Shown: positions 1 to 19,282, counted from the stretch's first letter. The stretch: 64,000 bases of DNA from an uncultured Oscillospiraceae bacterium (GCA_944386055.1 CALWZP010000008.1:28671-92670), one strand, 5' to 3'. Translations and numbers: made by a program. Notes: generated by a model from the sequence alone, not told the origin.

Positions 1-104
1 ACTTTTTCCGCGCGCAGAAAGGACCTCGCCCTCAGGCGAAACAACAGCACAGACCGTCAGCTCCGCAAAAAACCGCGAAAAAGGGAAAAATTTCTGCCGT
101 CCTC

Positions 105-133
105 TTGACATGCCTATATTTCCGATATATATT
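105..133 (+). promoter_or_regulatory. sigma-70-type promoter of the PadR operon (-35 TTGACA 105-110, 17-nt spacer, -10 TATATT 128-133)
   Basis: Hexamers and spacing were read directly from the sequence. The site lies about 50 nt upstream of the PadR ATG. Confidence 0.5.
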
Positions 134-143
134 GATGACAGAG

Positions 144-164
144 GTACATAGAAAATCTATGTAC
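144..164. promoter_or_regulatory. Perfect inverted repeat GTACATAG-N5-CTATGTAC, a candidate PadR autoregulatory operator
   Basis: 8-bp arms with a 5-nt spacer, lying between the -10 box and the SD (AAAGGAG 168-174). It contains the ATGT/ACAT half-sites typical of PadR operators. Confidence 0.5.
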
Positions 165-182
165 AGAAAGGAGCGTAGAATC

Positions 183-533
183 ATGAGCGGAGAAAAGAAC
201 CCCCTGGCGGGGAGCACCACCCTGCTGGTGCTGTCCCTTCTGGCCCAGAAGGACATGTACGGCTACCAGATGATCGCCGAGCTGGAGGAGCGGATGGACC
301 GCACCTTCAGCATGAAGGAGGGGACCCTCTACCCCATCCTTCACGGCCTGGAGAACCAGGGGGCGCTGAAGTCCTACAACAAGGAGGCGCCCTCGGGCAA
401 GACCCGGAAGTACTACCATATCACCAAAAAAGGACTGTCCCTGCTGAAGGAGAAGCGGGAGGAGTGGACCACCTTCACCGAGAAGGTGAACGCCGTCATC
501 GCCAGCGCCGGCCCCCTGCCTGACCTGGCATGA
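183..533 (+). CDS. PadR family winged-helix transcriptional regulator
   Basis: The ORF 105..533 was trimmed to the ATG at 183, which is preceded by AAAGGAG. The sequence LLVLSLL..DMYGYQMI..L....F.MKEGTLYPILHGLENQG.L is a classic PadR signature. The stop overlaps the next start (ATGA). Confidence 0.9.
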   Translation: MSGEKNPLAGSTTLLVLSLLAQKDMYGYQMIAELEERMDRTFSMKEGTLYPILHGLENQGALKSYNKEAPSGKTRKYYHITKKGLSLLKEKREEWTTFTEKVNAVIASAGPLPDLA

Positions 534-1315
534 GCACCGGCGGGGAGGGCGGGGGAGAGGGCCGCGCCCCCTTTGCCCGCTTCACCGACCAGGTCTGCGG
601 CCAGATCCTGTTCCGCCCCGCCCACCGGCGGGTGCGGGCAGAGCTCACCGCCCACCTGGAGGACCGGGCGGAGGCGCTGGAGGCCCGGGGCGTCCCCCCG
701 GAGGAGGCCGAGGAACAGGCGGTGGCCGCCATGGGCGACCCGAAGCGCCTGGGAAAGGCCCTGCACAAGGAGCACTGGCCCATCCTGGGCTGGATCGGGC
801 TGCTGTGGCCGGCGGCGCTGATGCTGGTCATCATTCTTCGGTTTTTCGTGGCGCCCTATCTCCCCGGGACGCTCTATCTCCGGGCGGCCGGGGTGGACCC
901 GGGGCAGGTGATCTTCTCCAGCAGCCCGAACCGGAACATAGAGCAGTCCGGCGTCTTTATCACCAGGGAGGGGGCGGAGTACCATTTTTACCGAACGGCC
1001 ATCCCGAAAGCCCTGGCGCTCCTGGTGTCCGACGAGGCGGTGGCCGTGGTCGGGCATGTGTCCTACGACCTGGTCACCGGGGAGATCACCTGGGAAAAGG
1101 AGCTGCCCTGGATATACGGCTCTGCTGTGGAGAGCGGGGACGATATCCACCTGAGATTTATATGGGCGACCAACGAAAACGGCCGGCCGGACGCGGGGAT
1201 GTACCACATGGGTCTGCTGCCGGCGGAGGACATCGACCCGGCCTGGCGGACCGACCTGTATCAGGAGATCGGGGACGGGCTGGCCCTGTTCGCCGGGTAT
1301 GAGACAGATTGGTGA
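530..1315 (+). CDS. Family A copy 1: PadR-associated membrane protein with a DUF1700/permease-prefix (HAAS-like) N-domain, 1 TM and a divergent ectodomain
   Basis: The gene is translationally coupled to PadR. Its N-terminus (FTDQVCGQILFRPAHRRVRAELTAHLEDRAEALEARGVPPEEAEEQAVAAMGDPKRLGKAL.KEH) is a diverged version of the module shared by the five downstream paralogs. A single hydrophobic span follows. Confidence 0.7.
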   Translation: MSTGGEGGGEGRAPFARFTDQVCGQILFRPAHRRVRAELTAHLEDRAEALEARGVPPEEAEEQAVAAMGDPKRLGKALHKEHWPILGWIGLLWPAALMLVIILRFFVAPYLPGTLYLRAAGVDPGQVIFSSSPNRNIEQSGVFITREGAEYHFYRTAIPKALALLVSDEAVAVVGHVSYDLVTGEITWEKELPWIYGSAVESGDDIHLRFIWATNENGRPDAGMYHMGLLPAEDIDPAWRTDLYQEIGDGLALFAGYETDW

Positions 1316-1344
1316 GACAGGGGCCTGACAGAGGGGGGAGCGAT

Positions 1345-2100
1345 ATGGACAGAAGCCCACGGGAGGAATTCATCGAAGCGGTGTGTGCCCAGGTCCGCTT
1401 CACCCCCGCCCGGAAGCAGATTGCCGACGAGCTGCGGGCCCATCTGGAGGACCGGGCGGCCATGCTGACCGAGCACGGCGTCACTCCCGAGGACGCCGCC
1501 GCCCGCGCCGTGGCATCCATGGGCGACCCGGAGGAGATCGGCGTAGCGCTGGATAAGGAGCACTCCTCCTTCTGGGGGTGGACGGCGGAGCTGGCCGGGG
1601 TGTTCATCGGGCTGGTGATCGCCCTCTTCCTGCTGTTCGGGTGGTTGGGAATCTTCTTCCTGCAGGAGGACTTCGACGGCGCCTTCCTCTACCGGTACAG
1701 CACCTCCGGCATGGACCACTATCTGAGCATGTATGACGAGGAGGACACCATCTGCAAGGGCCGGACCCTGGCCCTGCTGGAGACGGAGGAGTACTGGGCG
1801 GTGGTCACCGGGGTGGGGCTGTGCGTCCCTACCCCCGCCCTGCAGACGGACTGCTTTGTGATCTATAAAAATCCCTTCGTCCATGAGCACCCCCGGTATT
1901 CCGGCTGCGTCCGGGTGGAGGGGGTAGAGGGGGAGAACGGCCCCCTGGACAGCTGGGCGCTGGCCCAAGCCTACGAGCTGTGGCGGGAGGGCGAGGGGCC
2001 AATGCCGGACATCCCGGAGGAGCTCACCCTCACCCTGGTGAGCGACCTGGGGAAGTCCGTTACAATCACGGTGCCCATGACCTGGAGAAATGGAGGGTGA
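1345..2100 (+). CDS. Family A copy 2 (HAAS-like N-module + TM + divergent ectodomain)
   Basis: The ORF 1309..2100 was trimmed to the ATG at 1345 after a GAGGGGGGA SD. It carries the motif FIEAVCAQVRFTPARKQIADELRAHLEDRAAMLTEHGVTPEDAAARAVASMGDPEEIG. Confidence 0.7.
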   Translation: MDRSPREEFIEAVCAQVRFTPARKQIADELRAHLEDRAAMLTEHGVTPEDAAARAVASMGDPEEIGVALDKEHSSFWGWTAELAGVFIGLVIALFLLFGWLGIFFLQEDFDGAFLYRYSTSGMDHYLSMYDEEDTICKGRTLALLETEEYWAVVTGVGLCVPTPALQTDCFVIYKNPFVHEHPRYSGCVRVEGVEGENGPLDSWALAQAYELWREGEGPMPDIPEELTLTLVSDLGKSVTITVPMTWRNGG

Positions 2101-2103
2101 CTC

Positions 2104-2199
2104 ATGAGAAAACCCAACAACCGCGCCCGGGCGATCCGGAATGTGGTGATCCTGCTTCTGCTGCTGGTGTGGATCGCCGCCCTGATGCTGCCCCGGTGA
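2104..2199 (+). CDS. b1: 31-aa TM-only remnant of family B (MRKPNNRARAIRNVVILLLLLVWIAALMLPR), a possible minigene or pseudogene
   Basis: An ATG lies 4 nt after the A2 stop, with a GGAGGGTGA SD. The N-terminus matches the B-family signal-anchor pattern (basic residues, then IRN, then a hydrophobic helix). The ORF is too short for the ORF track. Confidence 0.4.
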   Translation: MRKPNNRARAIRNVVILLLLLVWIAALMLPR

Positions 2200-2219
2200 T
2201 GAGAGAGGAGGCCCGGGCC

Positions 2220-2657
2220 ATGGAAAAGCAAAAGTCCCCCGGCGGGGAGTTTATTGATGCGGTGTGCGCAAAGGTCCGGTTCACCCCCGCCCGGGAGAAA
2301 ATCGCGGAAGAACTCCAGGCCCACATAGAGGACCGGGCGGCCATGCTGACGGAGCACGGCGTCGCCCCGGAGAGCGCCGCCGCCCGGGCGGTGGCCGCCA
2401 TGGGCGACCCGGCGGAGATCGGCGCAGCGCTGGACAGAGAGCACTCCCCCTTCTGGGGGTGGATGGCCATCTGGACCGATATCGCGCGGTATCTGGTGCT
2501 GTTCCTGGTGGGGCTGATGGTGCTCTTTATCCTGATGGGGGAGGACCTCCCCACGCCGATGAGGCCAATGGCGGTCCACGACTGCGGGGGACAGGCCGCG
2601 CCGGTGGGCTGTGAATGGGCCGGACATGAGACGGGAGAGGAGGGTGAGGCGCTGTGA
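2220..2657 (+). CDS. Family A copy 3 (HAAS-like N-module + TM, short 45-aa ectodomain)
   Basis: The ORF 1980..2657 was trimmed to MEKQKSPGGEFIDAVCAKVRFTPAREKIAEELQAHIEDRAAML.... The SD is GAGAGGAGG. The stop overlaps the B1 start (GTGA). Confidence 0.7.
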   Translation: MEKQKSPGGEFIDAVCAKVRFTPAREKIAEELQAHIEDRAAMLTEHGVAPESAAARAVAAMGDPAEIGAALDREHSPFWGWMAIWTDIARYLVLFLVGLMVLFILMGEDLPTPMRPMAVHDCGGQAAPVGCEWAGHETGEEGEAL

Positions 2658-3358
2658 ACAGGAGAAACGCCATCCGCACCGGGGTCAACCTGCTGGTGGT
2701 GGGGGCCTTTGTGGCGTGGCTGCTGCTCAGCATCCGCCCCTGCTTCACCCCGGGGATGGTGCTGTGGTATACCCAGCACGACCTCGGCAGCTCCTTCACC
2801 GGCAATGTCTACGAGTCCACCGCCGGAAACGGCGGCACGGTCTGGACGGGCCGGATGGGGGACGGATACGGCCTCATCGCGGCGGAGAAGGAGGGACTTC
2901 TGTACCGCCGGAGCGCCGCCTATCTCATCGGACCGGGAGACCCGATCTCGTACACGCAGGAAAACCTGGACGGCCAGATCCAGGGCTACTTCTTCGGCCA
3001 TGTCAGCGACCCAGACATCGTCCGGGTGGAGGTGATCTGGCGGGCGGGCCACGCTCAGGACAACGGCGAGACCCAGAGCATCGTCATCACGGAATTTCAC
3101 GAGGGGATGTTCCACTTCTTCCTGGGGTTCCAGTCGTACATCTATGATTCCCCCCTGTTTTACGATCTCACCGTGGGCATGGACTACATCCTCTCTGCCT
3201 ACGACGCGGCGGGGGAGCTGGTCTGCCGATACGACGACTGGGATTGGGAGACGGCTCCGGGTCCGCTGGAGGAGGGGGTCCGTCCGGTGGAGCGGGACTG
3301 GGCCGACGGCCTGTCCACCAGAAAAACAGGGTGGACCACCGTCTATATCCGCCCCTGA
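2654..3358 (+). CDS. Family B copy 1: N-terminally anchored extracytoplasmic protein of unknown function
   Basis: GTG start overlapping the A3 stop. It has a signal-anchor (MNRRNAIRTGVNLLVVGAFVAWLLL) and the motifs RPxFTPxM, GLxAAEKEGLLYR, FFGHV.DPDI.RVEV, TEF..GMF and DYILSAYDAAGELVCRYD, ending in TTVYIRP. These motifs are shared with B2 and B3. Confidence 0.7.
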   Translation: MNRRNAIRTGVNLLVVGAFVAWLLLSIRPCFTPGMVLWYTQHDLGSSFTGNVYESTAGNGGTVWTGRMGDGYGLIAAEKEGLLYRRSAAYLIGPGDPISYTQENLDGQIQGYFFGHVSDPDIVRVEVIWRAGHAQDNGETQSIVITEFHEGMFHFFLGFQSYIYDSPLFYDLTVGMDYILSAYDAAGELVCRYDDWDWETAPGPLEEGVRPVERDWADGLSTRKTGWTTVYIRP

Positions 3359-3376
3359 CAGAGAGGAGGGCCGGCC

Positions 3377-4126
3377 ATGGAAAAGCAGAATACCCCCGGC
3401 GGGGAATTTGTTGACGCGGTGTGTGCCAAAGTCCGCTTCAAGCCCGCCCGGAAGCAGATCGCCGCGGAGCTCCGGGCCCACCTGGAGGACCGGGCGGCCA
3501 TGCTGGAAGAGCACGGCGTGCCGCCTGAGGACGCCGCCGCCCGGGCCGTGGCCGCCATGGGGGACCCGGAAGAGATCGGCACGGCCCTGGACAGGGAGCA
3601 CTCCCCCCTCTGGGGCTGGGCGGCGTTGTGGGCCGATGTGGCGCGGTATCTGGCGCTGGCGGCGCTGGCGCTGTGGCTGGGGCTGATTTTGATGTCCGTC
3701 GTGCCGGCGCCGGAGCTGTTCCACACCGGCGAGATCGCGTACGACGAGTTCCGGTGGACCGAGGCGGGGCCGGAGGAGTACCGGCAGGAGACGATCTCCC
3801 TCCACATCCCCTTCGAGACGGAGGACTCCTGGGGGGTGGTGCAGTCGGCGGAGCTGCGGCGGGGCGCCCGGTGGATGGAGGTCACCATCCGCTATGCGGA
3901 GCTGACCAAGGACCCCTTTCTGCCGGTGGCCCACGATGTCTGGTGCCGGCAGATCCGGGGGGCGGACGGCGCTGTGCTGGCGGCGCGGGACTCCCGGTGG
4001 GCCGAGCTGGAAAATCAGCCGGTGGAGGGCCCGCCGCCCGAGACGCTGTATCTGGACCTGGTCACCGCCCGGGGGACGGAGTTCACCGTGGAGGTGCCGT
4101 TGGAAGCGGGAGGTGAGGGGCAGTGA
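3377..4126 (+). CDS. Family A copy 4
   Basis: The protein begins MEKQNTPGGEFVDAVCAKVRFKPARKQIAAELRAHLEDRAAMLEEHGVPPEDAAARAVAAMGDPEEIGTALDREHSPLWGW, followed by a TM span and a 150-aa ectodomain. The stop overlaps the B2 start (GTGA). Confidence 0.7.
   Translation: MEKQNTPGGEFVDAVCAKVRFKPARKQIAAELRAHLEDRAAMLEEHGVPPEDAAARAVAAMGDPEEIGTALDREHSPLWGWAALWADVARYLALAALALWLGLILMSVVPAPELFHTGEIAYDEFRWTEAGPEEYRQETISLHIPFETEDSWGVVQSAELRRGARWMEVTIRYAELTKDPFLPVAHDVWCRQIRGADGAVLAARDSRWAELENQPVEGPPPETLYLDLVTARGTEFTVEVPLEAGGEGQ
3545..3625 (+). repeat. 81-nt tract in A4 that reads identical to 6015..6095 in A6
   Basis: Visual comparison (gccgtggccgccatgggggacccggaagagatcggcacggccctggacagggagcactcccccctctggggctgggcggcg). 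It overlaps the 3' end of the A5/A6 tract, which makes A6 a mosaic. Confidence 0.75.
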
Positions 4127-4848
4127 ACAGGAAAAAGGCGGTCCGCATTGGGGCAGATCTGGCGGTGATCGCCCTGGTGGCGGCCGTCATAGCGATGTGG
4201 TGGCTGCTGGGCAGCCGCCCCAGCTTCACCCCGGAGATGGCCCTGGAGCGCGCCCAGCGCTGGTACGGCAGCTTCTTCACCGGCCAGGTGTACGAGCTGC
4301 CCGGCGAGGCGGGCGGCGCCGTCTGGCTGGGCCGGATGGGGGAGGAGTACGGCCTCGTCGCGGCGGAGAAGGAGGGGCTGCTGTACCGCGGGACCGCCGT
4401 CAACACCATCCGGGATCTGGAGGGGCAGCCGCTGGTGTTCACGGAGGGGCCGGAGCAGATCGGCCTGACGGAAAATCAGGGCTGGTTCTTCGGCCATGTC
4501 ACCGACCCGGACATCGCCCGGGTGGAGGTGTTCTGGAAGAAAAGCAGCCAGGACCCCTTTGACGCATTCCAGAGCGTCGCCGTCACCGAATTTTACGACG
4601 GGATGTTCTGCTTCCCCATGGGCTTTGTGGAGGCCGAGGGGCCTTGGTTTAATCCCTACCGCGTCTCTGCGGACTACATCCTCTCGGCCTACGATGAGGA
4701 GGGGGAGCTGGTGTGCCGCTATGACCAGTGGAATTGGCAGGAGGGCCTGTGGCTGGAGGCGGACGGGCTCCGCCGTGTGGACTGGAACTGGGCCGACGGC
4801 CTGCCCACCGTGGAGACAGAGTACACCACCGTCTACATCTGCCCCTGA
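4123..4848 (+). CDS. Family B copy 2
   Basis: GTG start overlapping the A4 stop. It shows the same motif set as B1 and ends TTVYICP. Confidence 0.7.
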   Translation: MNRKKAVRIGADLAVIALVAAVIAMWWLLGSRPSFTPEMALERAQRWYGSFFTGQVYELPGEAGGAVWLGRMGEEYGLVAAEKEGLLYRGTAVNTIRDLEGQPLVFTEGPEQIGLTENQGWFFGHVTDPDIARVEVFWKKSSQDPFDAFQSVAVTEFYDGMFCFPMGFVEAEGPWFNPYRVSADYILSAYDEEGELVCRYDQWNWQEGLWLEADGLRRVDWNWADGLPTVETEYTTVYICP

Positions 4849-4868
4849 CAGAGAGAGGAGGGCCGGTC

Positions 4869-5672
4869 ATGGAAAAGCAGAAAACTCCTGGCGGGGAGTT
4901 TATTGACGCAGTGTGTGCCAAAGTCCGCTTCAAGCCCGCCCGGCAGCAAATTGCCCAGGAACTCCAGGCCCACCTGGAGGACCGGGCGGCCATGCTGGAG
5001 GCGCACGGCGTCACCCCCGAGGACGCCGCCGCCCGTGCCGTGGCCGCCATGGGGGACCCGGAGGAGATCGGCGCGGTCCTGGACAGGGAGCACTCCCCCT
5101 TCTGGGGGCGGGCCAGCCGGGTGACCCTGGTGCTGGCGGCGCTGCCTCTGCTGCTCTTTCTGGCCAGCGGGCTTTACTGGTTCGGCCTCCACGACGATGA
5201 CGGCAATTTGGACACCCTGTTCCTCTTCAGGGAGGCGCTGGACTACGGCACTGCGGACAATCTGGTGGGATCGGTCCAGGTGGGGGAGTGGTACGACACG
5301 GGATACGGCTGGATCTACCTAAGCGGGGTGGACATCTATGCCTGGGCCCACGAGGGGGTCAGCGAGCTGATCTTTGATTTCGACCAGCTCTACATCCGCC
5401 GGGCCCCCCGGGACCGCCAGCACGCCCGGGTCACCTTTACGCCCCTGCGGGTGTATGACGAGACGGGACAGTACCAGGAGGGCTGGCTGTACCGCGGCGC
5501 CCCCACCAGGACCCTGTATCTGGTCTTTGGGGACCCGGACGACTCCATCTACACCACCCAGGTGGAGCTGGACCTGGAGGTGGTCCAGCGGGTCCGGCTG
5601 GAGAGCCTGCAGGTCCTCGCCGGGCGCAGCGAGGCGGATGACGCCTGGCAAAACCCCGCCTATCTGCCGTGA
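4869..5672 (+). CDS. Family A copy 5
   Basis: The ORF 4728..5672 was trimmed to the ATG at 4869 (MEKQKTPGGEFIDAVC...) after a GAGAGGAGGG SD. Its N-module is nucleotide-identical to A6 over 164 nt. Confidence 0.7.
   Translation: MEKQKTPGGEFIDAVCAKVRFKPARQQIAQELQAHLEDRAAMLEAHGVTPEDAAARAVAAMGDPEEIGAVLDREHSPFWGRASRVTLVLAALPLLLFLASGLYWFGLHDDDGNLDTLFLFREALDYGTADNLVGSVQVGEWYDTGYGWIYLSGVDIYAWAHEGVSELIFDFDQLYIRRAPRDRQHARVTFTPLRVYDETGQYQEGWLYRGAPTRTLYLVFGDPDDSIYTTQVELDLEVVQRVRLESLQVLAGRSEADDAWQNPAYLP
4899..5062 (+). repeat. 164-nt tract in A5 that reads identical to 5877..6040 in A6
   Basis: Base-by-base visual comparison of the two stretches (tttattgacgcagtgtgtgcc ... ccatgggggacccgga). Both flanks diverge. 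Confidence 0.8.
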
Positions 5673-5688
5673 GAGAGAGGAGATCAAG

Positions 5689-5817
5689 ATGACCCGAAAG
5701 AACCGCCGGCGGACCATCCGCAACCTGATCGTGTTCCTGCTGCTGACCCTGTGGTGCGGCGCGCTGCTGGTCCGGGAGGTCTGCCCCGAGCTGTTTTACT
5801 ACCCCTATGTCCCCTGA
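5689..5817 (+). CDS. b2: 42-aa TM-only remnant of family B (MTRKNRRRTIRNLIVFLLLTLWCGALLVREVCPELFYYPYVP)
   Basis: ATG after a GAGAGAGAGGAG SD. It has a B-like N-terminal anchor, and its last residues (Y..P-stop) resemble the B C-terminus TTVYI[RC]P-stop. This fits an internal deletion of the ectodomain. Confidence 0.4.
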   Translation: MTRKNRRRTIRNLIVFLLLTLWCGALLVREVCPELFYYPYVP

Positions 5818-5846
5818 GTACCCGGGCATCAAGAGGAGGTGTCCCC

Positions 5847-6593
5847 ATGGAAGAGAAGAAGTCCCCCGGCGGGGAATTTATTGACGCAGTGTGTGCCAAA
5901 GTCCGCTTCAAGCCCGCCCGGCAGCAAATTGCCCAGGAACTCCAGGCCCACCTGGAGGACCGGGCGGCCATGCTGGAGGCGCACGGCGTCACCCCCGAGG
6001 ACGCCGCCGCCCGTGCCGTGGCCGCCATGGGGGACCCGGAAGAGATCGGCACGGCCCTGGACAGGGAGCACTCCCCCCTCTGGGGCTGGGCGGCGGTGTG
6101 GACATTTGTGGCGCGGTGCATTGTGGCATTTTTTGTGCTAATCGCGGTGATGCTACAGGTGGGACAACCTGGATTTTCCCATGCCTTTTTCAATACATCC
6201 CGGGCGGGCTTCATCTCCCCGCGGGAACAGCCCCTGATGACGGTCTCCCTGGGGCAGTGGTATGCCACAGAGCACCTTCTGGTCCGAATGAATAAAGCGG
6301 AGGTCTACCAGTATGCCGGCCCGCCGCGCGTCGGCTCGCTCCCCCCGCTCATAGGCGATTATACCGTAGAGATCAGCTATACCCAGTGGTATCGGAACCC
6401 CTTCCTGCGGACGGACCGGCAGTATGTCACCTGTCAGGACATCTGGGATGATGAGACGGGGGCGCATTATCCGGACGGTATCCTGGGGGACGCCAGGCCG
6501 CAGACGCTCTATCTCCAGCTGTCGGAGCCGGACGGGGAGCCCTTCGTGGTGGAGGTGCCCCTGGACTGGGAGGAGGTGAACGGGGATGTCTGA
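5847..6593 (+). CDS. Family A copy 6
   Basis: The ORF 5751..6593 was trimmed to the ATG at 5847 (MEEKKSPGGEFIDAVC...) after an AAGAGGAGG SD. The stop overlaps the B3 start region. Confidence 0.7.
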   Translation: MEEKKSPGGEFIDAVCAKVRFKPARQQIAQELQAHLEDRAAMLEAHGVTPEDAAARAVAAMGDPEEIGTALDREHSPLWGWAAVWTFVARCIVAFFVLIAVMLQVGQPGFSHAFFNTSRAGFISPREQPLMTVSLGQWYATEHLLVRMNKAEVYQYAGPPRVGSLPPLIGDYTVEISYTQWYRNPFLRTDRQYVTCQDIWDDETGAHYPDGILGDARPQTLYLQLSEPDGEPFVVEVPLDWEEVNGDV

Positions 6594-7275
6594 CAGAAGG
6601 CGGGCGGCGCGAAACCTGATCACCATCGTAATCCTGGTCCTGATCCCGGCATCCCTCTACCTGATCGTCGAGCAGCCCAATTTTACCCCGGGCATGGCCC
6701 GCTTCCGGGTGGAGTATGAGTACGGCGTCCGGCTGACCCAGGTCAGCGAGGTGAAGCTGGATCTGGACCGGGACCGGAGCGGCTGGAACGAGGCACAGCA
6801 ATTTGGAGCTCTGGCCTATGCAGAGGATGCCGTCTGTATGTTTGGCCGGGTGGGAAAGGACTACGCCCTCATCGCCGCCGATCGGCACAAGGGGGAACTG
6901 TGGTGGGACGAGCTCTGGTACTGCCGTCTCCGGCCTCAGGAGGGGGTGCCTGTGGTCAGCTCTCACGAGTGGGGGCTATATGAAGGCGGCACAAAACTGA
7001 TCCAGGGGATACAGCGCGGCGACATGGTATTCTGCGCGGTGCTGGATCCAGACATCACAAGGGTGGAGCTAACCTACCCTCAGAGCATGGAAAACCGTGT
7101 ATGTACCGTGGAGGCCACGGAGTTTTATGACGGGATGTTCCTGCTCTATCTCGGAGACTGGCAGTATGACCACTACATCCTCTCCGCCTACGACGCGGCG
7201 GGGGAACTGGTCTACCGGGATACCCGCTGGGGCGCGGATCAGGGCTGGATCGAAGAGACCTATATCCGCCCATAA
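6586..7275 (+). CDS. Family B copy 3 (most diverged)
   Basis: The ATG at 6586 overlaps the end of A6. It has a signal-anchor (MSDRRRAARNLITIVILVLIPASLYLIV) and the motifs QPNFTPGM, DPDITRVEL, TEFYDGMF and HYILSAYDAAGELVYRD, ending in YIRP. Confidence 0.7.
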   Translation: MSDRRRAARNLITIVILVLIPASLYLIVEQPNFTPGMARFRVEYEYGVRLTQVSEVKLDLDRDRSGWNEAQQFGALAYAEDAVCMFGRVGKDYALIAADRHKGELWWDELWYCRLRPQEGVPVVSSHEWGLYEGGTKLIQGIQRGDMVFCAVLDPDITRVELTYPQSMENRVCTVEATEFYDGMFLLYLGDWQYDHYILSAYDAAGELVYRDTRWGADQGWIEETYIRP

Positions 7276-7279
7276 AAAC

Positions 7280-7311
7280 AGGGCCGCGGAGGGGGATCCC
7301 TCCACGGCCCT
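7280..7311. terminator. GC-rich hairpin between the convergent B3 and rlmI-like genes (bidirectional terminator candidate)
   Basis: AGGGCCGCGGAGGG-gat-CCCTCCACGGCCCT, a 14-bp stem with one G-U pair. An A-run lies upstream and TGCCGCATTT downstream. Confidence 0.55.
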
Positions 7312-7321
7312 GCCGCATTTC

Positions 7322-8548
7322 TCACACCACCTGGAACAGGTAGAACTTCAGATAGCTGGTCTCCGGCACCCCCCACAGGATGGGGTGGTCGGGGGACTGC
7401 TGCCGCGCCTCGATCTGCCGCAGGGAGACGGCGGCGTCCGCCGCGGCGTCGTGGAGCATCCGCCGGAACAGCGGCTCGGTCATGAAGTGAGAGCAGGAGC
7501 AGGTGGCCAGATACCCGCCCCGGGGCAGCAGCCTCATGGCCTTCAGGTTGATCTCCTTGTACCCCCGGAAGGCGTTTTTCACCGTGGTGCTGCTCTTGGT
7601 GAAGGCAGGGGGGTCCAGGATGATGAAGTCATAGTCCCGCCGCCTCTCCGCCGCCATGCGGGTGAGCAGCTGGAAGACATCGGCCGTCACGAAGTCCATC
7701 CTCTCCTCCAGGCCGTTGCGGGCGCAGTTGGCCCGGGCCAGGGCGATGGCGTCGGCGGAGATGTCCACCGCGGTGACATGCGCCGCCCCGCCCTTCACCG
7801 CGTTGAGGGCGAAGGACCCGGTGTGGGTGAAGCAGTCCAGCACCCGCCGCCCCTTTGCCAGCCGGGCCGCCGCCTGGCGGTTGTACTTCTGATCCAGGAA
7901 AAAGCCGGTCTTCTGTCCGTCGATGTAGTCCACATCATAGACCACCCCGTTCTCGGTGATGGTCACATGGCCGTCCAGGCCGGTCTCCAGGCCGGGGGCG
8001 GCGAAGAAGCCCTTCCCCTGTTCCAGCCCCTCCTTTTCCCGGATGGCCACATCGTTGCGCTCATAGACGGCCCGCACCGGGGCGCCCATCTCCCCCAGCA
8101 GCCGGACCAGCAGGGGGAAGAGCAGCGCCTTCCGCCGCTCCAGCCCCAGGCACAGGGTCTGGGTCACCAGGATGTCCCCAAAGCGGTCCACCGTCAGGCC
8201 GGGGAGCTGGTCCGCCTCCCCGAACACCAGGCGGCAGTTGGAGAAGAAGTCCGCCCCCATCACCGCCCGGCGGTACTCCAGGGCGTAGCGCAGCCGCCGG
8301 GTCCAGAAGTTCTCGTCAAAGCGGTCGTTGGGGTTGCGGGAGAGCAGCCGCACCCGGATCTTGGAGACCTCGTTGTAAAATCCCGCCCCCAGCCAGCGCC
8401 CCTTCCGGGAGCGCACATCCACGATGCCGCCGTTTTCCGGCGCGCCCTCCAGGGCGGTGACCTCCTCCCCGAACACCCAGGGGTGGCCGCCCCGCAGGGC
8501 GCGCTCCGCCTTCTCGGTGACGGTGACCGCGGGAAAGCCTCGTTCCAT
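7322..8548 (-). CDS. rlmI: Class I SAM-dependent rRNA (cytosine-C5) methyltransferase, RlmI/YwbD-like, with an N-terminal PUA-like domain
   Basis: The protein contains HPWVF..E, QKTGFFLDQ, VLDCF.HTG.F and IILDPPAF. The start was trimmed to the ATG at 8548, 7 nt after GGAGGTG. Confidence 0.8.
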   Translation of the reverse strand: MERGFPAVTVTEKAERALRGGHPWVFGEEVTALEGAPENGGIVDVRSRKGRWLGAGFYNEVSKIRVRLLSRNPNDRFDENFWTRRLRYALEYRRAVMGADFFSNCRLVFGEADQLPGLTVDRFGDILVTQTLCLGLERRKALLFPLLVRLLGEMGAPVRAVYERNDVAIREKEGLEQGKGFFAAPGLETGLDGHVTITENGVVYDVDYIDGQKTGFFLDQKYNRQAAARLAKGRRVLDCFTHTGSFALNAVKGGAAHVTAVDISADAIALARANCARNGLEERMDFVTADVFQLLTRMAAERRRDYDFIILDPPAFTKSSTTVKNAFRGYKEINLKAMRLLPRGGYLATCSCSHFMTEPLFRRMLHDAAADAAVSLRQIEARQQSPDHPILWGVPETSYLKFYLFQVV

Positions 8549-11997: not shown

Positions 11998-12002
11998 CAT
12001 AT

Positions 12003-12078
<76 letters not shown>

Positions 12079-12122
12079 GAAACCCGTCTGATTTCGCAGA
12101 AAATCAGACGGGTTTTCTTTTT
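12079..12122 (+). terminator. Rho-independent terminator after the tRNA pair
   Basis: Stem GAAACCCGTCTGATTT / AAATCAGACGGGTTTTC followed by TTTTT. Confidence 0.85.
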
Positions 12123-12316
12123 GCTGAATGATGAAGGATTCAGACCGGACCTGAGGAATTGCTGATTGCCCCAATACCTGAAATACTGGGTTATGGGCGA
12201 GGCAGCCCCCTCGCCCGTTTTAACAGTTTGAGGGAATTCAGAGAATCGCCGTCTAAAAGGGAACATCAGGTATATGATGCTGATGGGTGTATGAAAAATG
12301 GTACAAAGGAAAATGC

Positions 12317-12355
12317 AAAATCGCCATGCAGCCTCTGCGGTTGCATGGCGATTTT
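12317..12355. terminator. Bidirectional rho-independent terminator (serves the LysR gene on the minus strand)
   Basis: Perfect 14-bp stem AAAATCGCCATGCA / TGCATGGCGATTTT with T-runs available on both strands. Confidence 0.75.
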
Positions 12356-12381
12356 GATTTTCTAAAAAGGTCTGGAGGACA

Positions 12382-13272
12382 TTAGGAGTCCGGATAAAGT
12401 TCCTGAGCCATCCTTACGAATTCCAATACAGACGCTTTTGCGTTGTCCCGGTGCCAGCCCAACGCAAGTTCAATAAATGCGGTAGAACCTGCGATGGGAA
12501 TTACCCGAATTTCTTCCGGCCAGACGGCCAGATTCATGTGGGAGGGAAGGATGGTAAAACCGAGCCCCGCCTGGACTGCGGCAAAGATGGTGGCAGCCTG
12601 TGGATAGTAGATTTTCTGGTTGGACTCAAGACCATGCTGAGCCAGGATATCCAAGATCTTGGGAAACAAAAACGGCGCCGCGGAATTGCTTTCCATAATA
12701 AGCGGAAAACCCTTTAAACCGGACAGATCCTGGGGGTCTACCAATGAGGTGTATTTCTGATGGATATAAACGGCATAGCGATCCGGACGGATAGGAGTGG
12801 TGTCCAACATATCAAAGGAGCGCAGGAGCGGAGCGACAGAGAAGTAAAGATCACATGCATTCTGATTGATCATTCCCACCTGCCGCCCGCCGTTTCCGCT
12901 GTCCATACGAATATGGATGTTAGGATACTGCTGATGATAGATGGAGACATACTCGGTCATAACCGTTTCAGCGCCGCCAGTGGAGGAGATGTCCAGAAAT
13001 CCGATGGCCCCACGGCTGATGTCATTCATCCGGCTTTCTGCTTCCATCATCTGGTTTAAAATGTTGACAGCATAATTGTAAAACTCTGACCCGGCAAAAG
13101 TCAGGGTAACGCTATGCTTTGTCCGGTGAAACAGCTGGACGCCCAGTTCGGCCTCCAGCTTGGCGATTTGGTTGGTGAGAGCGGGTTGGGAGATAAAGTA
13201 TTGTTTGGCGACCCGGGAGAAATTCAACGCCTGGGTCAGCGAGACGAAGTAAGTCAACTGGTTCTTGTCCAA
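12382..13272 (-). CDS. LysR family transcriptional regulator, divergent from the Mo-hydroxylase operon
   Basis: The HTH reads QLTYFVSLTQALNFSRVAKQYFISQPALTNQIAKLEAELGVQLF. The ORF extends to 13299, but GGGAGGTG followed 5 nt later by a TTG at 13272 gives the canonical MDKNQL.YF N-terminus. Confidence 0.85.
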   Translation of the reverse strand: MDKNQLTYFVSLTQALNFSRVAKQYFISQPALTNQIAKLEAELGVQLFHRTKHSVTLTFAGSEFYNYAVNILNQMMEAESRMNDISRGAIGFLDISSTGGAETVMTEYVSIYHQQYPNIHIRMDSGNGGRQVGMINQNACDLYFSVAPLLRSFDMLDTTPIRPDRYAVYIHQKYTSLVDPQDLSGLKGFPLIMESNSAAPFLFPKILDILAQHGLESNQKIYYPQAATIFAAVQAGLGFTILPSHMNLAVWPEEIRVIPIAGSTAFIELALGWHRDNAKASVLEFVRMAQELYPDS

Positions 13273-13678
13273 GAGGGCACCTCCCTTGCCCAGAGGCATA
13301 GTACGACAGTATACAAAGATAGGATTCGCCGAAACATCAACAATAGCAAGATTTATTTTGTCACAGCCGCCTCTCCGCCGATGGTGTCAACGGGAGCCGG
13401 TGCAGCCTGCAATACTGGCACCGGACATTTGTCCTGAAAGTACCTGCGGAACACCATGTAATGGTTCCGCTTTGCAGAGCTATTATTAATATTATACCAT
13501 GTTTGAGAAAGAAAAGACAACCCTGCTTGTGAAAAGAGCGATAGAAAAGCCTGCTATTTTTGATTTGTTTTGGTTATAAGGACTAAGAATTTTTGAAATT
13601 CCAATTCCCAATGTACTGTGGTATCGTTATTTATGTAACAAAGACTGCAGATCACAATTTTGACAGAAGGTGGAATTT

Positions 13679-16276
13679 ATGCCGACTTTTACGCTGAATG
13701 GAGCGGTCTGCTCTACGACAAAAAGCAAAAAGCTTTTGAAATTTCTGCGGGATGACCTGCATCTGACCAGCGTGAAGAACGCCTGCGGTGAGGGAGCGTG
13801 CGGCAGCTGCACTGTGCTGATGGATGGAAAGCCAGTGCGTAGCTGCATTCAGACCACGGACCGGGTGGATGGGCACAGTATCATCACCTGCGAGGGGTTG
13901 TCCCAGCGGGAGAAGGAGGTCTATTCCTATGCTTTTGCCGAGGCAGGAGCCGTGCAGTGCGGCTTCTGTATTCCAGGGATGGTGCTGGCGGCGAAAGCGC
14001 TTTTGGACAGAAAGCCGGATCCCTCGATTCAGGAGATCAAACAGGCCATACGGGGGAATATCTGCAGATGTACCGGGTATGTGAAAATTGAACAGGCGAT
14101 CCTGCTGGCGGCCAGACTTTTCCGCAGTGGCGAGCAGGTTCCGCACAGAGAATTTCTGGGGGGCCTGGGAGAGCGGATGCATCGGGTGGATGCCAGAGAC
14201 AAGGTGCTGGGGACGGCCAAGTTTGCGGACGACCTCTATCTGGACGGGATGCTGTTTGGAAGCGCTCTGCGCAGCAAATACCCCAGGGCGCGAGTGCTGT
14301 CCATCGACACATCGGAGGCCCGGTCCATGCCGGGGATTGCCGGCGTGCTGACCGCGGAGGATATCCCAGGAGCGCGCAAGATTGGATATATTGTCCCTGA
14401 CTGGGATGTGCTGGTCCCAGTGGGGGAGACGACGCATTTTCTGGGAGACGCCATCGCTCTTGTGGTGGGAGAGAACGAGGAGGTGGTAGAGCAGGCCAAG
14501 CAGAAAATCCGGGTGGAGTATGAGGAACTGCCGGCGATCTTCTCCTTTCAGGAGTCCATGCGGGGGGATATTCAAGTTCATGAGGACCGTCCCAACCTGA
14601 TGTGTGAACGGCACATCCTCCGGGGTGACGCGGATAAGGCCATCCGGGAGAGCAAGTATGTGGTGACCACCAAGTACAAGACCCCCTATAACGAACATGC
14701 CTTTATGGAGCCGGAGTGCGCTGTGGCAGAGCCGGAGGGAGAGGAGGGCGTACACCTCTACTGTGGGGACCAGGGAATCTATGAGTCCCGCAAGAAATGC
14801 TCCGCCATGCTGGGTATTCCAGAGGAGAAATTTCATGTTACTGCTATGATGGTTGGCGGTGCATTTGGAGCAAAAAATGACATGGTGGTGCAGCACCATG
14901 CTGCACTGGCGGCCTGGTGTCTTAAGCGCCCGGTAAAGGTCCGCCTGACCCGGCAGGAAAGTCTGGAGATTCACCCAAAGCGTCCGCCCTTGGAGATGGA
15001 ATTTACCACTGCTTGCGACGAAAACGGCTATCTTACCGCGACCAAGGCTGTGGTGCTCCGGGATAACGGGGCATATGCCTCCGCCGGCATCCCGGTGCTG
15101 GAGAGGGCGTGTGTACTTGGAACCGGACCTTATCACTATGACAATGTGGATATCCTGGGTCAGGCTTGGTATTCCAACAATGTGCCCGGTGGAGCATTCC
15201 GCGGCTTCAGCGTACCGCAGACCGCCTTTTGCACGGAGTGCAATCTGAACAAGCTGGCCAAGCTGGTGGGCATCTCCCCCTTTGAGATCCGATACCGCAA
15301 CGCCATCCGCCCGGGACAGGCCATGCCAAATGGGCAGATCATGGGTGAGGACTGCGCGTTGGTGGAAACTCTGGATGCCGTGCGCGCCGATTACGAGGCG
15401 CATCCCGATGCGGGGATCGCCTGTGGCTTCAAAAATAGCGGGACTGGCACTGGGCTGACCGACACCGGGCGTTGTCGATTGGTAGTGAAGGATGGCTTGA
15501 TCCATATATACAGCGGAGCTGCTTGCCTGGGTCAGGGCATGGGGACTGTGGAGACGCAGATGGTGTGCGAAGTGACCGGTGTCAGGCCGGAGCAGACCCT
15601 GTTCTGCACTCCGGACACCGACACCTCGCCGGATTCGGGGATGGCCATTGCCTCTCGCCATACCGTGATCACGGGAGAGGCAGTCTGTCTTGCCAGCAGA
15701 AAACTGAAACAGGCCATGGAGACAGTAAATGGAGACCTGGGTGCCCTGGAGGGGCAGGAGTTTCTGGGGGAATTCAGTCCTCCCACTGACCCCATGGATT
15801 CTACAAAGAAGAATCCGGTCTCCCATGTGACCTACTCCTTTGCAACCATGATGGTGCTGCTGGATGAGCACAACATGGTAGAGCGGGTGATTACCGCAAC
15901 AGATGTGGGGCGCCCAGTGAACCCAACCAATATTGAGGGACAGCTGGAGGGCGGCGTGACCATGGCCCTGGGCTTTGCATTGATGGAAAAGTTTGAGGTA
16001 GACCATGGAAAGGTACTCACCCGCTACGGAACACTGGGGCTGCCCCGGGCCGACCAGATTCCGGAAATCGAGGTGCGAATTGTGAACCGGGGAGCAGATG
16101 GCCCGGCAATGGGCGCCAAGGGATGCGGGGAGATATCCACCATCCCGGTCGCACCGGCGCTGCAGTTGGCCTATTATAACCGCACCGGCGTATTCCAGAC
16201 GGAACTGCCCCTGAAGACCCCATATTGGAGGCACAGAGGGGGCAGTACAGCAAAACCACAGGCCAAGAAAGAATAA
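13679..16276 (+). CDS. Fused [2Fe-2S] + molybdopterin-binding hydroxylase of the xanthine dehydrogenase/aldehyde oxidase family (XdhD-like; candidate selenium-dependent molybdenum hydroxylase)
   Basis: The N-terminus carries CGEGACGSCTV, QCGFCIPGM and NICRCTGY (two 2Fe-2S clusters). This is followed by Mo-hydroxylase a/b-hammerhead and MoCo-binding domains (GGAFG.K, GQG..T). The ATG at 13679 follows GAAGGTGG. Context is yqeB/yqeC/selD. Confidence 0.85.
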   Translation: MPTFTLNGAVCSTTKSKKLLKFLRDDLHLTSVKNACGEGACGSCTVLMDGKPVRSCIQTTDRVDGHSIITCEGLSQREKEVYSYAFAEAGAVQCGFCIPGMVLAAKALLDRKPDPSIQEIKQAIRGNICRCTGYVKIEQAILLAARLFRSGEQVPHREFLGGLGERMHRVDARDKVLGTAKFADDLYLDGMLFGSALRSKYPRARVLSIDTSEARSMPGIAGVLTAEDIPGARKIGYIVPDWDVLVPVGETTHFLGDAIALVVGENEEVVEQAKQKIRVEYEELPAIFSFQESMRGDIQVHEDRPNLMCERHILRGDADKAIRESKYVVTTKYKTPYNEHAFMEPECAVAEPEGEEGVHLYCGDQGIYESRKKCSAMLGIPEEKFHVTAMMVGGAFGAKNDMVVQHHAALAAWCLKRPVKVRLTRQESLEIHPKRPPLEMEFTTACDENGYLTATKAVVLRDNGAYASAGIPVLERACVLGTGPYHYDNVDILGQAWYSNNVPGGAFRGFSVPQTAFCTECNLNKLAKLVGISPFEIRYRNAIRPGQAMPNGQIMGEDCALVETLDAVRADYEAHPDAGIACGFKNSGTGTGLTDTGRCRLVVKDGLIHIYSGAACLGQGMGTVETQMVCEVTGVRPEQTLFCTPDTDTSPDSGMAIASRHTVITGEAVCLASRKLKQAMETVNGDLGALEGQEFLGEFSPPTDPMDSTKKNPVSHVTYSFATMMVLLDEHNMVERVITATDVGRPVNPTNIEGQLEGGVTMALGFALMEKFEVDHGKVLTRYGTLGLPRADQIPEIEVRIVNRGADGPAMGAKGCGEISTIPVAPALQLAYYNRTGVFQTELPLKTPYWRHRGGSTAKPQAKKE

Positions 16277-16319
16277 TAGAAAGTGCACAGAACAAACAAA
16301 ACTTAAGGAGGAAAGAACG

Positions 16320-17384
16320 ATGAAAAAGCTGATGACTGCACTGCTGACCATGGCCATGTTAACGGCGCTTGTACTGACCGGATGTGGCGGAGAGGAGCAA
16401 GCCGGCGGGGACACTCCGGAGGATACCGTCTATACCCTCCGGATTGGCACAGGAACTGGCGGACGAGACAAACAGGTCGCATGGATGGAAGAGTTTGAGA
16501 CTCAGCTGGAGGCAGCCACGGAGGGGCGCATTGATGTGCAGTGCTATCCGTCCGGCTCCATCGGCACCATGGCCGAGATGGTCCAGGGTGTTGTGGACGG
16601 CTCTCTGGATGCGGGCTGCTTCCCCACCGCGTACTGGTCCACCATTTTCCCCGCTGCGGCCTGTACAGAACTGCCCAACCTGTTTCCGGGCGGCAGTGAA
16701 CAGCTGTGGAACATCCTGATGACTCAGGACACCAAACTGGAGGAGGAGTACATCGCTCATGGAGTGATTCCGGGGACTTGGTTGATGGTCCCTGAGCGTA
16801 CCATCATCTCCAGCACCAAAATCGAGAGCATGGAGGATCTCCAGGGCAAGGTGATCTGGTGCACACCCAGTGACATGCTGCTCAAGGAGATTGAAATGCT
16901 GGGGGCTGTGTCCTCTGCCATTAATGTGGGAGAACTGGCTCCTTCTCTGCAGAACGGGACAGTGGACGGCGCAGCCTCAGAAATCACGCTCTATTATTCC
17001 CAGTCGCTGCAGACTGCAGGCGGCAACTATCTGCTGGAGGCTCCTGGTGATGCTTTTATCTCGATCTTTGCCATCAGTCAGCATTGGTGGGACCAAGTTC
17101 CAGAGGACCTGAGAGAGATTGTGCTGGAGGTTGCCAACGACACAGCCACAAACTTTGAGGTGGAGTATGTCCAGAACCAGACAGCGGAGGCCTATGAGGA
17201 GATGCAGGCTGCCGGCATGGAGGTGGTAATTCCCAGCGAGGAGTTCCAGGCAGACATGGATGCCGCTCTGGCGGGGCTTGCTGATTGGTACTTGGAAACC
17301 TACCCGGAAGCTACCGAGGTCTACAACGATATGGTGGACCGCGTTGCGGCAGATGAAGCCGACAACACGCAGGGTGAGAACTGA
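16320..17384 (+). CDS. TRAP transporter substrate-binding subunit (DctP family), lipoprotein
   Basis: It has a lipobox (LVLTGC) and sits directly upstream of the DctQ/DctM-type genes. Size and layout fit the DctP family. Confidence 0.8.
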   Translation: MKKLMTALLTMAMLTALVLTGCGGEEQAGGDTPEDTVYTLRIGTGTGGRDKQVAWMEEFETQLEAATEGRIDVQCYPSGSIGTMAEMVQGVVDGSLDAGCFPTAYWSTIFPAAACTELPNLFPGGSEQLWNILMTQDTKLEEEYIAHGVIPGTWLMVPERTIISSTKIESMEDLQGKVIWCTPSDMLLKEIEMLGAVSSAINVGELAPSLQNGTVDGAASEITLYYSQSLQTAGGNYLLEAPGDAFISIFAISQHWWDQVPEDLREIVLEVANDTATNFEVEYVQNQTAEAYEEMQAAGMEVVIPSEEFQADMDAALAGLADWYLETYPEATEVYNDMVDRVAADEADNTQGEN

Positions 17385-17461
17385 GAGGAGGTTCTCGCCT
17401 GAATATTGGCCGAAGGGGGCGGAGCGCCCGCCTCTTCGGAAGCTGAAGGGAAGGAGTGCCT

Positions 17462-17950
17462 ATGAAAGCCTGTCGTGACACGGTCAAAAAATTGATGGAT
17501 GTCCTGTTTGCAGTGGCTGCAATCCTCTATGGCGCGGGCACTGTGCTGGCGGTGGGGAACGCCGTCTGCCGTAAATTTTTGGACATTGGAATTGCCTGGG
17601 GAGATGAGCTGACTACCTATCTTATTGTAGTGGCGTTTTTCTTAACCATTCCCTATCTGGAGCTTCACAACGGATCTCTGTGTATTGGTCTGCTGGATAA
17701 CTTGATCAAGAATAAGACTGTGGCCCGAATATTGTATGTTATTCGGGGGTTATTGGTGGTATCCCTGAGCATCATCATTGTGCGGTATGGCCTTGTGGCT
17801 ATCGATTCCGCCATTGCATCTGATCTGAGGACCTTCACTCTGCGGTGGCCAAAGGCAATCTTTTACGCAATCTCGGTTGCCGGTTTTGCCCTGAGCGTTG
17901 TCTCCTGGATCACGATCATCCTACTGAACAAGGGGGAGAAGATGGAATGA
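17462..17950 (+). CDS. TRAP transporter small permease (DctQ family)
   Basis: A hydrophobic protein of about 160 aa with 4 predicted TM spans. The ATG at 17462 follows GGGAAGGAG, and the stop overlaps the dctM start (ATGA). Confidence 0.8.
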   Translation: MKACRDTVKKLMDVLFAVAAILYGAGTVLAVGNAVCRKFLDIGIAWGDELTTYLIVVAFFLTIPYLELHNGSLCIGLLDNLIKNKTVARILYVIRGLLVVSLSIIIVRYGLVAIDSAIASDLRTFTLRWPKAIFYAISVAGFALSVVSWITIILLNKGEKME

Positions 17951-19218: not shown

Positions 19219-19243
19219 TAATCTTTCCTTTACCAAAGCGCAC

Positions 19244-19282
19244 AAATACAAAGCCTTTCCCACGCGGAAAGGCTCTGTATTT
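19244..19282 (+). terminator. Hairpin after dctM (weak terminator or processing site)
   Basis: 17-bp stem with one mismatch (AAATACAAAGCCTTTCC / GGAAAGGCTCTGTATTT). The trailing T-run is only short. Confidence 0.4.

Follow-up and report, generated by a model that had tools for sequence, protein, structure and literature searches.

The HAAS domain has been described as a PadR-coupled signalling module that lies N-terminal to transmembrane (TM) sensors, with release of PadR on a signal as its proposed action (PMC11237479; PMC12419801). In Listeria, the operon lltR-lmo0600 (DUF1700)-lmo0601 is derepressed >100-fold in a PadR (lltR) mutant, an experimental precedent for autoregulation (PMC6624303). 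Here we analyze a stretch of 64,000 nucleotides (nt) from an uncultured Oscillospiraceae bacterium (GCA_944386055.1 CALWZP010000008.1:28671-92670), called the window in the following, in which positions 105-7311 hold a single operon on the plus strand: a promoter, a palindromic operator candidate, a gene for a PadR regulator and genes for six single-pass membrane proteins (A1-A6) with their partners, twelve genes altogether. Among species-representative genomes the same locus was found solely in one uncultured Oscillospiraceae metagenome-assembled genome. We lean towards reading it as a PadR operon under its own control whose genes encode a battery of membrane receptor cassettes of two proteins each, i.e. 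many inputs to one regulator.

Layout and control region of the operon

The genes are separated by gaps of 3-30 nt or overlap, and a consensus scan of positions 1-7500 gave 105-133 as the sole promoter-like site; one promoter together with such junctions argues for one transcription unit. Five of the six A genes (A2-A6) are each followed by a coupled type-II membrane partner, three of them full-length (B1-B3) and two mini (31 and 42 amino acids, aa). An earlier annotation made from the DNA alone (the sequence-only reading) had proposed these open reading frames (ORFs), and all of them were found at the coordinates it gave, the PadR frame being open from 105 with its ATG at 183. The junction overlaps are likewise as it had claimed: ATGA at 530-533 (PadR/A1), GTGA at 2654 (A3/B1) and 4123 (A4/B2), and the ATG of B3 at 6586 inside the end of A6. 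The features are as follows.

105..133, plus strand: sigma-70-type promoter, TTGACA-17-TATATT, 11/12 positions matched
144..164, unstranded: palindromic operator candidate GTACATAG-N5-CTATGTAC, unique in the 64 kb window
183..533, plus strand: PadR-family winged-helix regulator, 116 aa, short form (PF03551, 81 bits against a cut-off of 27)
530..1315, plus strand: A1, diverged HAAS/perm_prefix_1 module, one TM span (85-103) and an ectodomain type of its own, no B partner (NF038403, 57 bits)
1345..2100, plus strand: A2, HAAS module, TM span and beta ectodomain (NF038403, 54.8 bits)
2104..2199, plus strand: mini-b1, 31 aa, basic N-terminus and TM span, partner of A2-type genes (ORF read in the sequence; called as a gene in related arrays)
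2220..2657, plus strand: A3, short form with HAAS module, TM span and 40-aa tail, always with B1 (NF038403, 49.7 bits)
2654..3358, plus strand: B1, type-II membrane protein with divergent DUF5044-like ectodomain (TM 9-27 with 3 K/R before it; hhalign)
3377..4126, plus strand: A4, HAAS module, TM span and beta ectodomain (NF038403, 53.6 bits; structure model)
4123..4848, plus strand: B2, type-II membrane protein, DUF5044-like (GTGA overlap with A4; structure model)
4869..5672, plus strand: A5, HAAS module, TM span and beta ectodomain (NF038403, 53.3 bits)
5689..5817, plus strand: mini-b2, 42 aa, basic N-terminus and TM span, partner of A5-type genes (ORF read in the sequence; kept in related arrays)
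5847..6593, plus strand: A6, HAAS module, TM span and beta ectodomain (NF038403, 53.4 bits)
6586..7275, plus strand: B3, type-II membrane protein, DUF5044-like, the most diverged B (ATG within the end of A6; 37% identical to B1)
7281..7310, unstranded: GC-rich hairpin GGGCCGCGGAGGG-N4-CCCTCCACGGCCC, candidate shared terminator (read from the sequence; T-run on the minus-strand side only)

The promoter and the palindrome had both been claimed at these positions, and both are there: the former as a single sigma-70-like site, the latter as a perfect palindrome with one occurrence in the window, where 0.02 are expected. The -35 context TTGACAT(A/G)CCT stands ahead of PadR in all related loci. For other lineages the promoter region reads TTGAC-ATACCT-N9-AGGTAT-(3 nt)-ATACCT-N9-AGGTAT, i.e. 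it holds two palindromes, the first spanning -35 to -10 and the second lying immediately downstream. The window palindrome (GTACATAGAAAATCTATGTAC) aligns with this second site, from which it differs by symmetric substitutions (C to A in one arm, G to T in the other) that keep the dyad. Such symmetry is expected of a site bound by a dimeric protein and thus supports autoregulation by PadR, whose PF03551 domain covers residues 16-89 (27 bits being the gathering score). At the place of the first operator the window has a degenerate version (ATGCCTATATTTCCGATATAT, 110-130), which is intact in the sister species L001; this lineage may therefore have lost one of two candidate PadR sites.

Hairpins of the type CCCC(C)-N4-GGGG lie 15-30 nt past the start codons of PadR and A3-A6 (199-215, 2235-2248, 3393-3405, 4882-4901 and 5862-5875), fall in codons for P-L-A-G / P-G-G-E and are absent from distant lineages; they may affect translation initiation or merely be part of a converted block. 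Upstream of PadR, about 1 kb is free of called genes (positions 3275-4336 of L002, a locus with the same array; window 1-104 is the 3' end of this gap) and holds many GC hairpins as well as a strong terminator-like stem at L002 3495-3530. An Rfam scan of the operon and the 1-kb gap gave sub-threshold hits only.

The A proteins and their partners

According to the sequence-only reading, the six A proteins share one N-terminal module of HAAS or perm_prefix_1 type. Indeed, A1-A6 all match NCBIfam perm_prefix_1 (NF038403) with 49.7-57 bits against a curated cut-off of 30 (E 2.4e-13 to 1.2e-15), and the DNA contains six copies of a 286-nt direct repeat, one per A gene, which spans its ribosome-binding region and N-module. 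A1 carries a diverged copy, as proposed, which is 45-56% identical to the other A N-modules. When isolated N-modules from three lineages were searched, Pfam HAAS matched 13/13 at E <= 0.01 (best 2.9e-7), and the HAAS-defining GxP motif, here M-G-(D/N)-P, is invariant in the 13 modules save for one D-to-N change. In the AlphaFold2 model of A4 (predicted local distance difference test, pLDDT, 78.6), residues 9-74 form a helical N-domain and residues 77-107 the TM helix, and the ectodomain has nine strands; the helices at 22-45, 50-61 and 64-74, with a break at G62-D-P64, are the three helices with a GxP kink that are expected of HAAS. Each module lies N-terminal to one TM span, and a standalone PadR gene comes first in the window and in all related loci with enough upstream DNA.

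A single hydrophobic span is present in every A, B and mini-b protein; for the A proteins this had been stated before, together with the poor alignability of what follows. The ectodomains of A2, A4, A5 and A6 are mutually 25-30% identical, that of A1 is unrelated to them, and the short A3 keeps the HAAS module without an ectodomain. Between the two main lineages the A ectodomains are distantly related (hhalign 76%, E 2.4e-5). The top Foldseek matches of the A4 and B2 models were generic beta-sandwich proteins with TM-scores of ~0.2, and searches of PDB sequences with the HAAS-module and B profiles gave nothing credible, DUF1048 / 2O3L not being recovered. An assignment of the A proteins to the ADOP / FtsX-type permeases, the usual carriers of perm_prefix_1, was rejected, as they have one TM span only and FtsX_ECD was the sole FtsX-related match (E 0.1-0.16). 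Homology of the A ectodomain to B or DUF5044 was not detectable either, with an hhalign probability of <1% despite a common 'YD-x-x-G' hairpin motif.

For the B proteins, no match was found in Pfam at E <= 1 and none in NCBIfam, the gathering score of DUF5044 (PF16447; 25 bits) not being reached, and close relatives of B1-B3 are few (14 among 5.8 billion clusters). Among 1.84 billion representatives, a profile of the close B set found 35 proteins at E <= 0.001, mostly N-anchored and of ~170-230 aa. It retrieved DUF5044-type proteins at E 1e-4 to 9e-4, several of which carry Pfam DUF5044 (e.g. P0086, 91 bits), and in hhalign the close B set and an independent DUF5044 set were aligned over 143 columns with 98% probability (E 1.6e-13). 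On the strength of this profile comparison, the same architecture and the same PadR-A-B gene context, family B is to be regarded as a divergent relative of the uncharacterized Pfam DUF5044, a family of which we found no mention in the literature searched. This agrees with the earlier view that B is not a characterized family; the B motifs listed at that time hold in B1 and B2 and are looser in B3. The AlphaFold2 model of B2 (pLDDT 73) has a TM helix at 3-30 and a helix at 37-48 with the FTPxxA motif, then an all-beta domain. Since 3-5 Lys/Arg precede the hydrophobic span of the B and mini-b proteins, their N-terminus is predicted to be inside and their C-terminus outside. Relationship of B to SpaA, PKD or cadherin-like repeats was rejected: the matches are giant adhesins that score over many repeats, Foldseek gave no support, and these matches are at most a weak hint at a beta-sandwich.

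The TM-only ORFs after A2 and A5, which had been called remnants, are real, but the term is probably wrong. Mini-b1 was called as a gene in L002, L006 and L016 and is a 32-aa ORF in the other species L001, with a ratio of nonsynonymous to synonymous substitution rates (dN/dS) of 0.29; mini-b2 follows every A5-type gene (5/5 in four arrays), its copies there being 98-100% identical. As they are conserved between strains or species and translationally coupled, the mini-b genes are probably functional rather than decayed. A GGAGGG Shine-Dalgarno sequence for mini-b1 lies within the last codons of A2, and each B gene has a Shine-Dalgarno sequence too, often within the E-G-G-E codons of A. The C-terminal E-G-G-E / N-G-G of the A proteins corresponds to GGAGG-type DNA 6-12 nt before the next B start (2086-2103, 2630-2656, 4100-4125 and 6560-6590), so that this protein motif is probably in part the Shine-Dalgarno sequence of the coupled partner. 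The partners are complementary: A3, without an ectodomain, has a full-length B; A2 and A5, with an ectodomain, have an anchor-only mini-b; A4 and A6 have both an ectodomain and a full-length B.

Array versions, evolution of the copies and related operons

We compared five versions of the array, all at the same chromosomal site as the window. After PadR they contain the following genes, with b31, b32 and b42 standing for the mini-b proteins by length.

Window / L002: A1, A2·b31, A3·B1, A4·B2, A5·b42, A6·B3
L006 / L007 (flanks ~98% identical to the window): A1', A2'·b31, A2·b31, A5'·b42, A4·B2, A5·b42, A6·B3
L016 + L017: A1', A2'·b31, A3·B1, A4·B2, A5'·b42, A6·B3
L019 / L020 / L021: A1, A1', A3·B1, A5'·b42, A6·B3
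L001 (another species): A1', A2, A2'·b32, A4·B2, A3·B1, A6'·B3'

The related genomes thus have no fixed gene set: the number, order and content of the cassettes differ among the five versions. What stays constant is the pairing, A3 with B1, A4 with B2, A6 with B3, A5-type genes with b42 and A2-type genes with b31 (one exception, in L001). A3 and B1 are adjacent in 4/4 arrays that have both, and an A1-type gene comes first in every array with the PadR end on the contig. In comparison with L001, A6 and B3 diverge in parallel (42% and 46% identity; other pairs 77-86%). Arrays of the same version came out of independent assemblies of different samples (L006/L007; L019/L020/L021), which argues against an assembly artefact. 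Three database proteins on contigs of 1.3-4.6 kb (P0009, P0012 and P0055) join the N-half of B2 or the N-module of A6 to unrelated proteins (a PF03631 membrane protein; a protein with PF19290 and PF19289) and are most likely assembly chimeras at the repeats. As chimeras do occur at these repeats, the apparent B1/B2 mosaic proteins P0002 and P0004, on contigs of 0.9-1.7 kb, are suspect and were not relied on.

The N-modules and the ectodomains have evolved differently. Among A2-A6 the synonymous divergence (dS) of the N-modules is 0.20-0.55, in the pair A5/A6 only 0.02 (98% DNA identity), and against these near-identical N-modules the ectodomains of A5 and A6 are just 28% identical. Between strains (~98% identity) the reverse is seen for A4, A6 and A2, with identical ectodomains and N-modules that differ at many sites; in A2 and A4 compared with L001, the N-module dS (0.49-0.57) exceeds the ectodomain dS (0.20-0.26). 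Taken together, homogenized N-modules, diverged ectodomains and these dS contrasts point to gene conversion among the N-modules. Values of dN/dS against L001 are 0.10 for the PadR orthologues, 0.20 for the flanking methyltransferase, 0.17-0.30 for the N-modules, 0.24-0.64 for the ectodomains and 0.29 for mini-b1. They are below 1 throughout, so that all parts are under constraint, the ectodomains least. Whole-gene and per-domain comparisons with L001 gave no gene-wide positive selection; the 32-codon N-terminus plus TM span of B2 has a dN/dS of 1.71, a stretch too short to interpret. The word 'diversifying', which the sequence-only reading had chosen for this system, therefore suits its cassette turnover but not selection on point mutations (ectodomain dN/dS 0.24-0.64).

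Related loci were gathered partly by a metagenome scan with the DUF5044 motif alone, which gave nine loci. In nine/nine, A and B genes alternate, with up to four pairs (L025, L030), and PadR comes first in 7/7 of those whose contig extends upstream of the first A gene. Every DUF5044-type protein with a readable contig directly follows a HAAS-type A gene, with PadR first; altogether 13 independent loci were sampled for DUF5044 genes beside HAAS and PadR genes, and each of them proved positive. One A/B pair follows PadR in Peptococcaceae BICA1-8 (L009), three pairs each are found in L008, L012 and L013, and two in L014, the first of them fused into one protein. This protein, P0056 (L014 1941-2666; 241 aa), was seen in two samples and consists of a HAAS module, a TM span and the C-terminal half of DUF5044; it could be a natural fusion or a deletion. 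In fact, PadR-(HAAS protein + DUF5044 protein)n with n = 1-4 was found in every other lineage sampled, each time with the operator pair over the promoter. An operon of this kind, with PadR ahead of one to four A/B pairs, is conserved in several lineages of Clostridia. The sequence-only reading knew of no described function for a multi-sensor PadR array; such an architecture also occurs outside this genome.

In the second lineage the first A is distinct and the later A genes are alike, as in the window. There, a small SLH-domain protein follows the array and a phage-tail-like cluster (Baseplate_J, Mu Gp48-like, CBM_5_12, holin), which may be a prophage or tailocin, is convergent to it; the arrangement is kept in four loci (L008 9802-12654; L012 8187-11048; L025 14058-15688; L030 10646-12294).

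Around the array in the window, a convergent PUA/SAM-methyltransferase gene and dpaBA lie beyond the hairpin at 7281-7310, which was not listed by the consensus scan. Positions 12000-28000 have a GC content of 0.50-0.59 (~0.65 elsewhere) and may have been horizontally acquired; they encode a LysR regulator, a TRAP transporter and a molybdenum hydroxylase of the aldehyde oxidase / xanthine dehydrogenase family.

Possible roles of the array and comparison with known systems

How could the parts work together? As receptors wired to one regulator, they would act as follows. PadR would bind the palindrome over and just downstream of the promoter and repress its own operon, and the cytoplasmic HAAS modules of all six A proteins would, depending on conditions, bind one and the same PadR dimer at the membrane or let it go. 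A·B heterodimers would form via the TM helices and, where present, the ectodomains, and ligands encountered by the ectodomains in the envelope would set the state of the pair and with it whether PadR is held or released. With six HAAS modules per PadR made from one transcript, binding must be conditional or signal-gated, as the repressor would otherwise always be titrated away. Since the modules would all have to fit one PadR, selection and gene conversion would keep them alike, and the 286-nt homology blocks would make the locus a hot spot for gain, loss and reordering of cassettes. The sequence-only picture of one regulator wired to a battery of receptors agrees with our results on the N-modules, on family B and on variation between genomes, where none of the outcomes that it had named as fatal was observed; sensing is the part of it that we put forward as a proposal.

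Several observations weigh against this picture. The Pfam HAAS model (PF22564) scores the full-length A proteins at 22-24.2 bits, below its 27-bit cut-off, and the isolated N-module of A4 at 26.4. For the ectodomains no known ligand-binding fold was matched: Foldseek searches with the B2 model (PDB, BFVD) and the A4 model (PDB) gave nothing better than E 0.03. Whole-gene dN/dS against L001 is below 1 and so fails to prove an arms race. The sequences are all derived from assembled metagenomes, in which repeats may be joined wrongly. In the literature we found no experimental demonstration of HAAS-PadR binding, the published model being comparative-genomic only; the literature on DUF5044, the HAAS domain and PadR anti-repressors yielded no experimental work on such arrays either. 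Finally, no second operator for PadR was found across the 64 kb window, so that the only visible target is the operon itself.

With the operon as the only visible PadR output, a reading of A and B as envelope effectors fits as well as one as sensors. The surface proteins would then act against phages, bacteriocins or host factors, whether as shields, as decoys or as proteins associated with the wall, with HAAS as a dosage feedback to PadR, and the strain-to-strain turnover of cassettes would reflect pressure on the surface proteins themselves. In characterized PadR operons, co-transcribed membrane proteins are indeed regarded as the effectors (PMC6624303), the ectodomains are the variable part that is swapped between strains, and the second-lineage arrays are followed by the SLH cell-wall-binding protein and adjoin phage-tail-like genes. 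Six maintained and homogenized PadR-partner modules (dN/dS 0.17-0.30, gene conversion) are hard to explain, however, if one feedback link were enough; A3 keeps its HAAS module without any ectodomain to deploy, and neither A nor B matches known defence or phage families (PADLOC and PHROGs profile hidden Markov models, with which PadR gave weak generic helix-turn-helix matches only). All in all, we consider an effector role possible but rather unlikely.

The variation itself invites another interpretation, in which the array serves as a recombination reservoir for receptor or antigen variation, like the orphan modules of polymorphic-toxin or pilin loci: the 286-nt blocks at the cassette boundaries would allow a population to swap, duplicate and delete cassettes, and only some of the copies would matter at a given time. 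The six 286-nt direct repeats would suit such a role, as would the five array versions at one site (two of them within ~98% flank identity), the N-modules that vary between strains while ectodomains are identical, and the apparent B1/B2 mosaics, although the latter stand on 0.9-1.7 kb contigs and may be assembly chimeras. Yet every copy is intact, with its own start codon and Shine-Dalgarno sequence, and belongs to one operon; the copies are thus expected to be expressed together, which weakens this interpretation. A silent-cassette structure, an invertase or recombinase gene and a toxin domain are all lacking, and we judge a reservoir quite improbable. An orphan array of polymorphic toxin or immunity genes was rejected as a candidate, with no toxin or immunity family in Pfam/NCBIfam and all A genes complete with their own start codon. 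Could the array simply consist of decaying paralogues, or of a repeated gene that was wrongly assembled, without a joint function? The metagenomic origin of all sequences and the chimeric database entries at these repeats (P0009, P0012, P0055) would allow for it. On the other hand, the first 12 kb of the window match a 201-kb contig of a metagenome from Brazil (ENA ERZ24773253, BRZ_BM NODE_89) with 100% identity, arrays recur between independent assemblies (L006/L007; L019/L020/L021), all genes are intact with dN/dS <1, and the operon type is conserved in distant lineages. This explanation is largely refuted, and we give it hardly any weight.

The reading as receptors that report to one PadR can be carried further, to a recombination-driven repertoire of surface receptors in which the HAAS blocks are both the plug to PadR and the homology arms for shuffling, duplicating and exchanging A·B cassettes. 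We regard this extension as unlikely; if true, strains of one gut species would differ in which agents (phages, bacteriocins, surface molecules of hosts or neighbours) trigger the same response, which would make the locus a bacterial counterpart of a variable set of innate receptors.

How does the locus compare with described systems? Like the dyad of HAAS and PadR-like winged helix-turn-helix proteins (Ravi et al. 2024, mSystems, PMC11237479; overlapping with DUF1700/HAAS PF22564 and NF038403), it has a short standalone PadR followed by a GxP three-helix N-module, and this module precedes a TM span and a presumed sensor, for which membrane hold and release of PadR has been proposed. In the described dyads each PadR has a single HAAS protein, in which HAAS is joined to multi-TM or Toastrack/PspC/FtsX/VanZ sensors. 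Here one PadR is accompanied by up to seven single-pass HAAS proteins, usually with beta ectodomains, and most of these have a cognate DUF5044-type co-protein, a partner not mentioned in PMC11237479 / PMC12419801; moreover, the HAAS modules evolve in concert and the cassettes turn over between strains. With lltR (lmo0599)-lmo0600 (DUF1700)-lmo0601 (DUF4097) of Listeria monocytogenes (Hauf et al. 2019, PMC6624303) it shares the order of PadR, a DUF1700/HAAS membrane protein and a second envelope protein, as well as PadR autorepression, which was shown for Listeria and is inferred here. The Listeria operon differs in having a single pair, a multi-spanning lmo0600 and DUF4097 (Toastrack) instead of DUF5044, and no array or variation has been reported for it.

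The B proteins resemble DUF5044 (PF16447; uncharacterized, ~200 aa, Firmicutes) in their N-terminal anchor, their length, their position after a HAAS gene and the order of motifs (FTPxxA helix, NDPxIVRVE, GYDAxGELV), and differ from it in an extra C-terminal ~40 aa in B1 and B2 and in that two partners here are anchor-only. A parallel outside the PadR family are the SigI/RsgI sets of Clostridium thermocellum and sigM-yhdL-yhdK of B. subtilis, in which single-pass membrane anti-factors combine a conserved cytoplasmic regulator-binding module with variable ectodomains and, in the sigM case, a small membrane co-protein accompanies the anti-factor. Those systems work with sigma factors and one regulator per sensor, whereas here there is no sigma factor and one PadR for all sensors.

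It has been suggested that HAAS/PadR pairs are an alternative to two-component systems with a histidine kinase. For this proposal the locus offers a natural test set: one regulator has to accommodate six HAAS modules, so that residues conserved in all of them point to the likely interface; the ectodomains differ between cassettes and strains, so that the inputs should be separable by experiment; and the conserved operator could be used in reporters. It would also give Pfam DUF5044 a first functional context, as the obligate partner of a HAAS receptor, and is a case of within-species structural variation at a signalling locus in uncultured gut Oscillospiraceae; should the cassettes recognize phages, bacteriocins or molecules of the host, the array version would mark the ecological specificity of a strain. 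Of the features that define the HAAS/PadR dyad, those open to analysis are present at this locus, and binding of PadR is predicted. What is new in comparison with the known systems is the tandem battery of HAAS proteins under one PadR, their single-pass form with beta ectodomains, the DUF5044-type co-proteins, and the concerted evolution of the HAAS modules together with the turnover of the cassettes.

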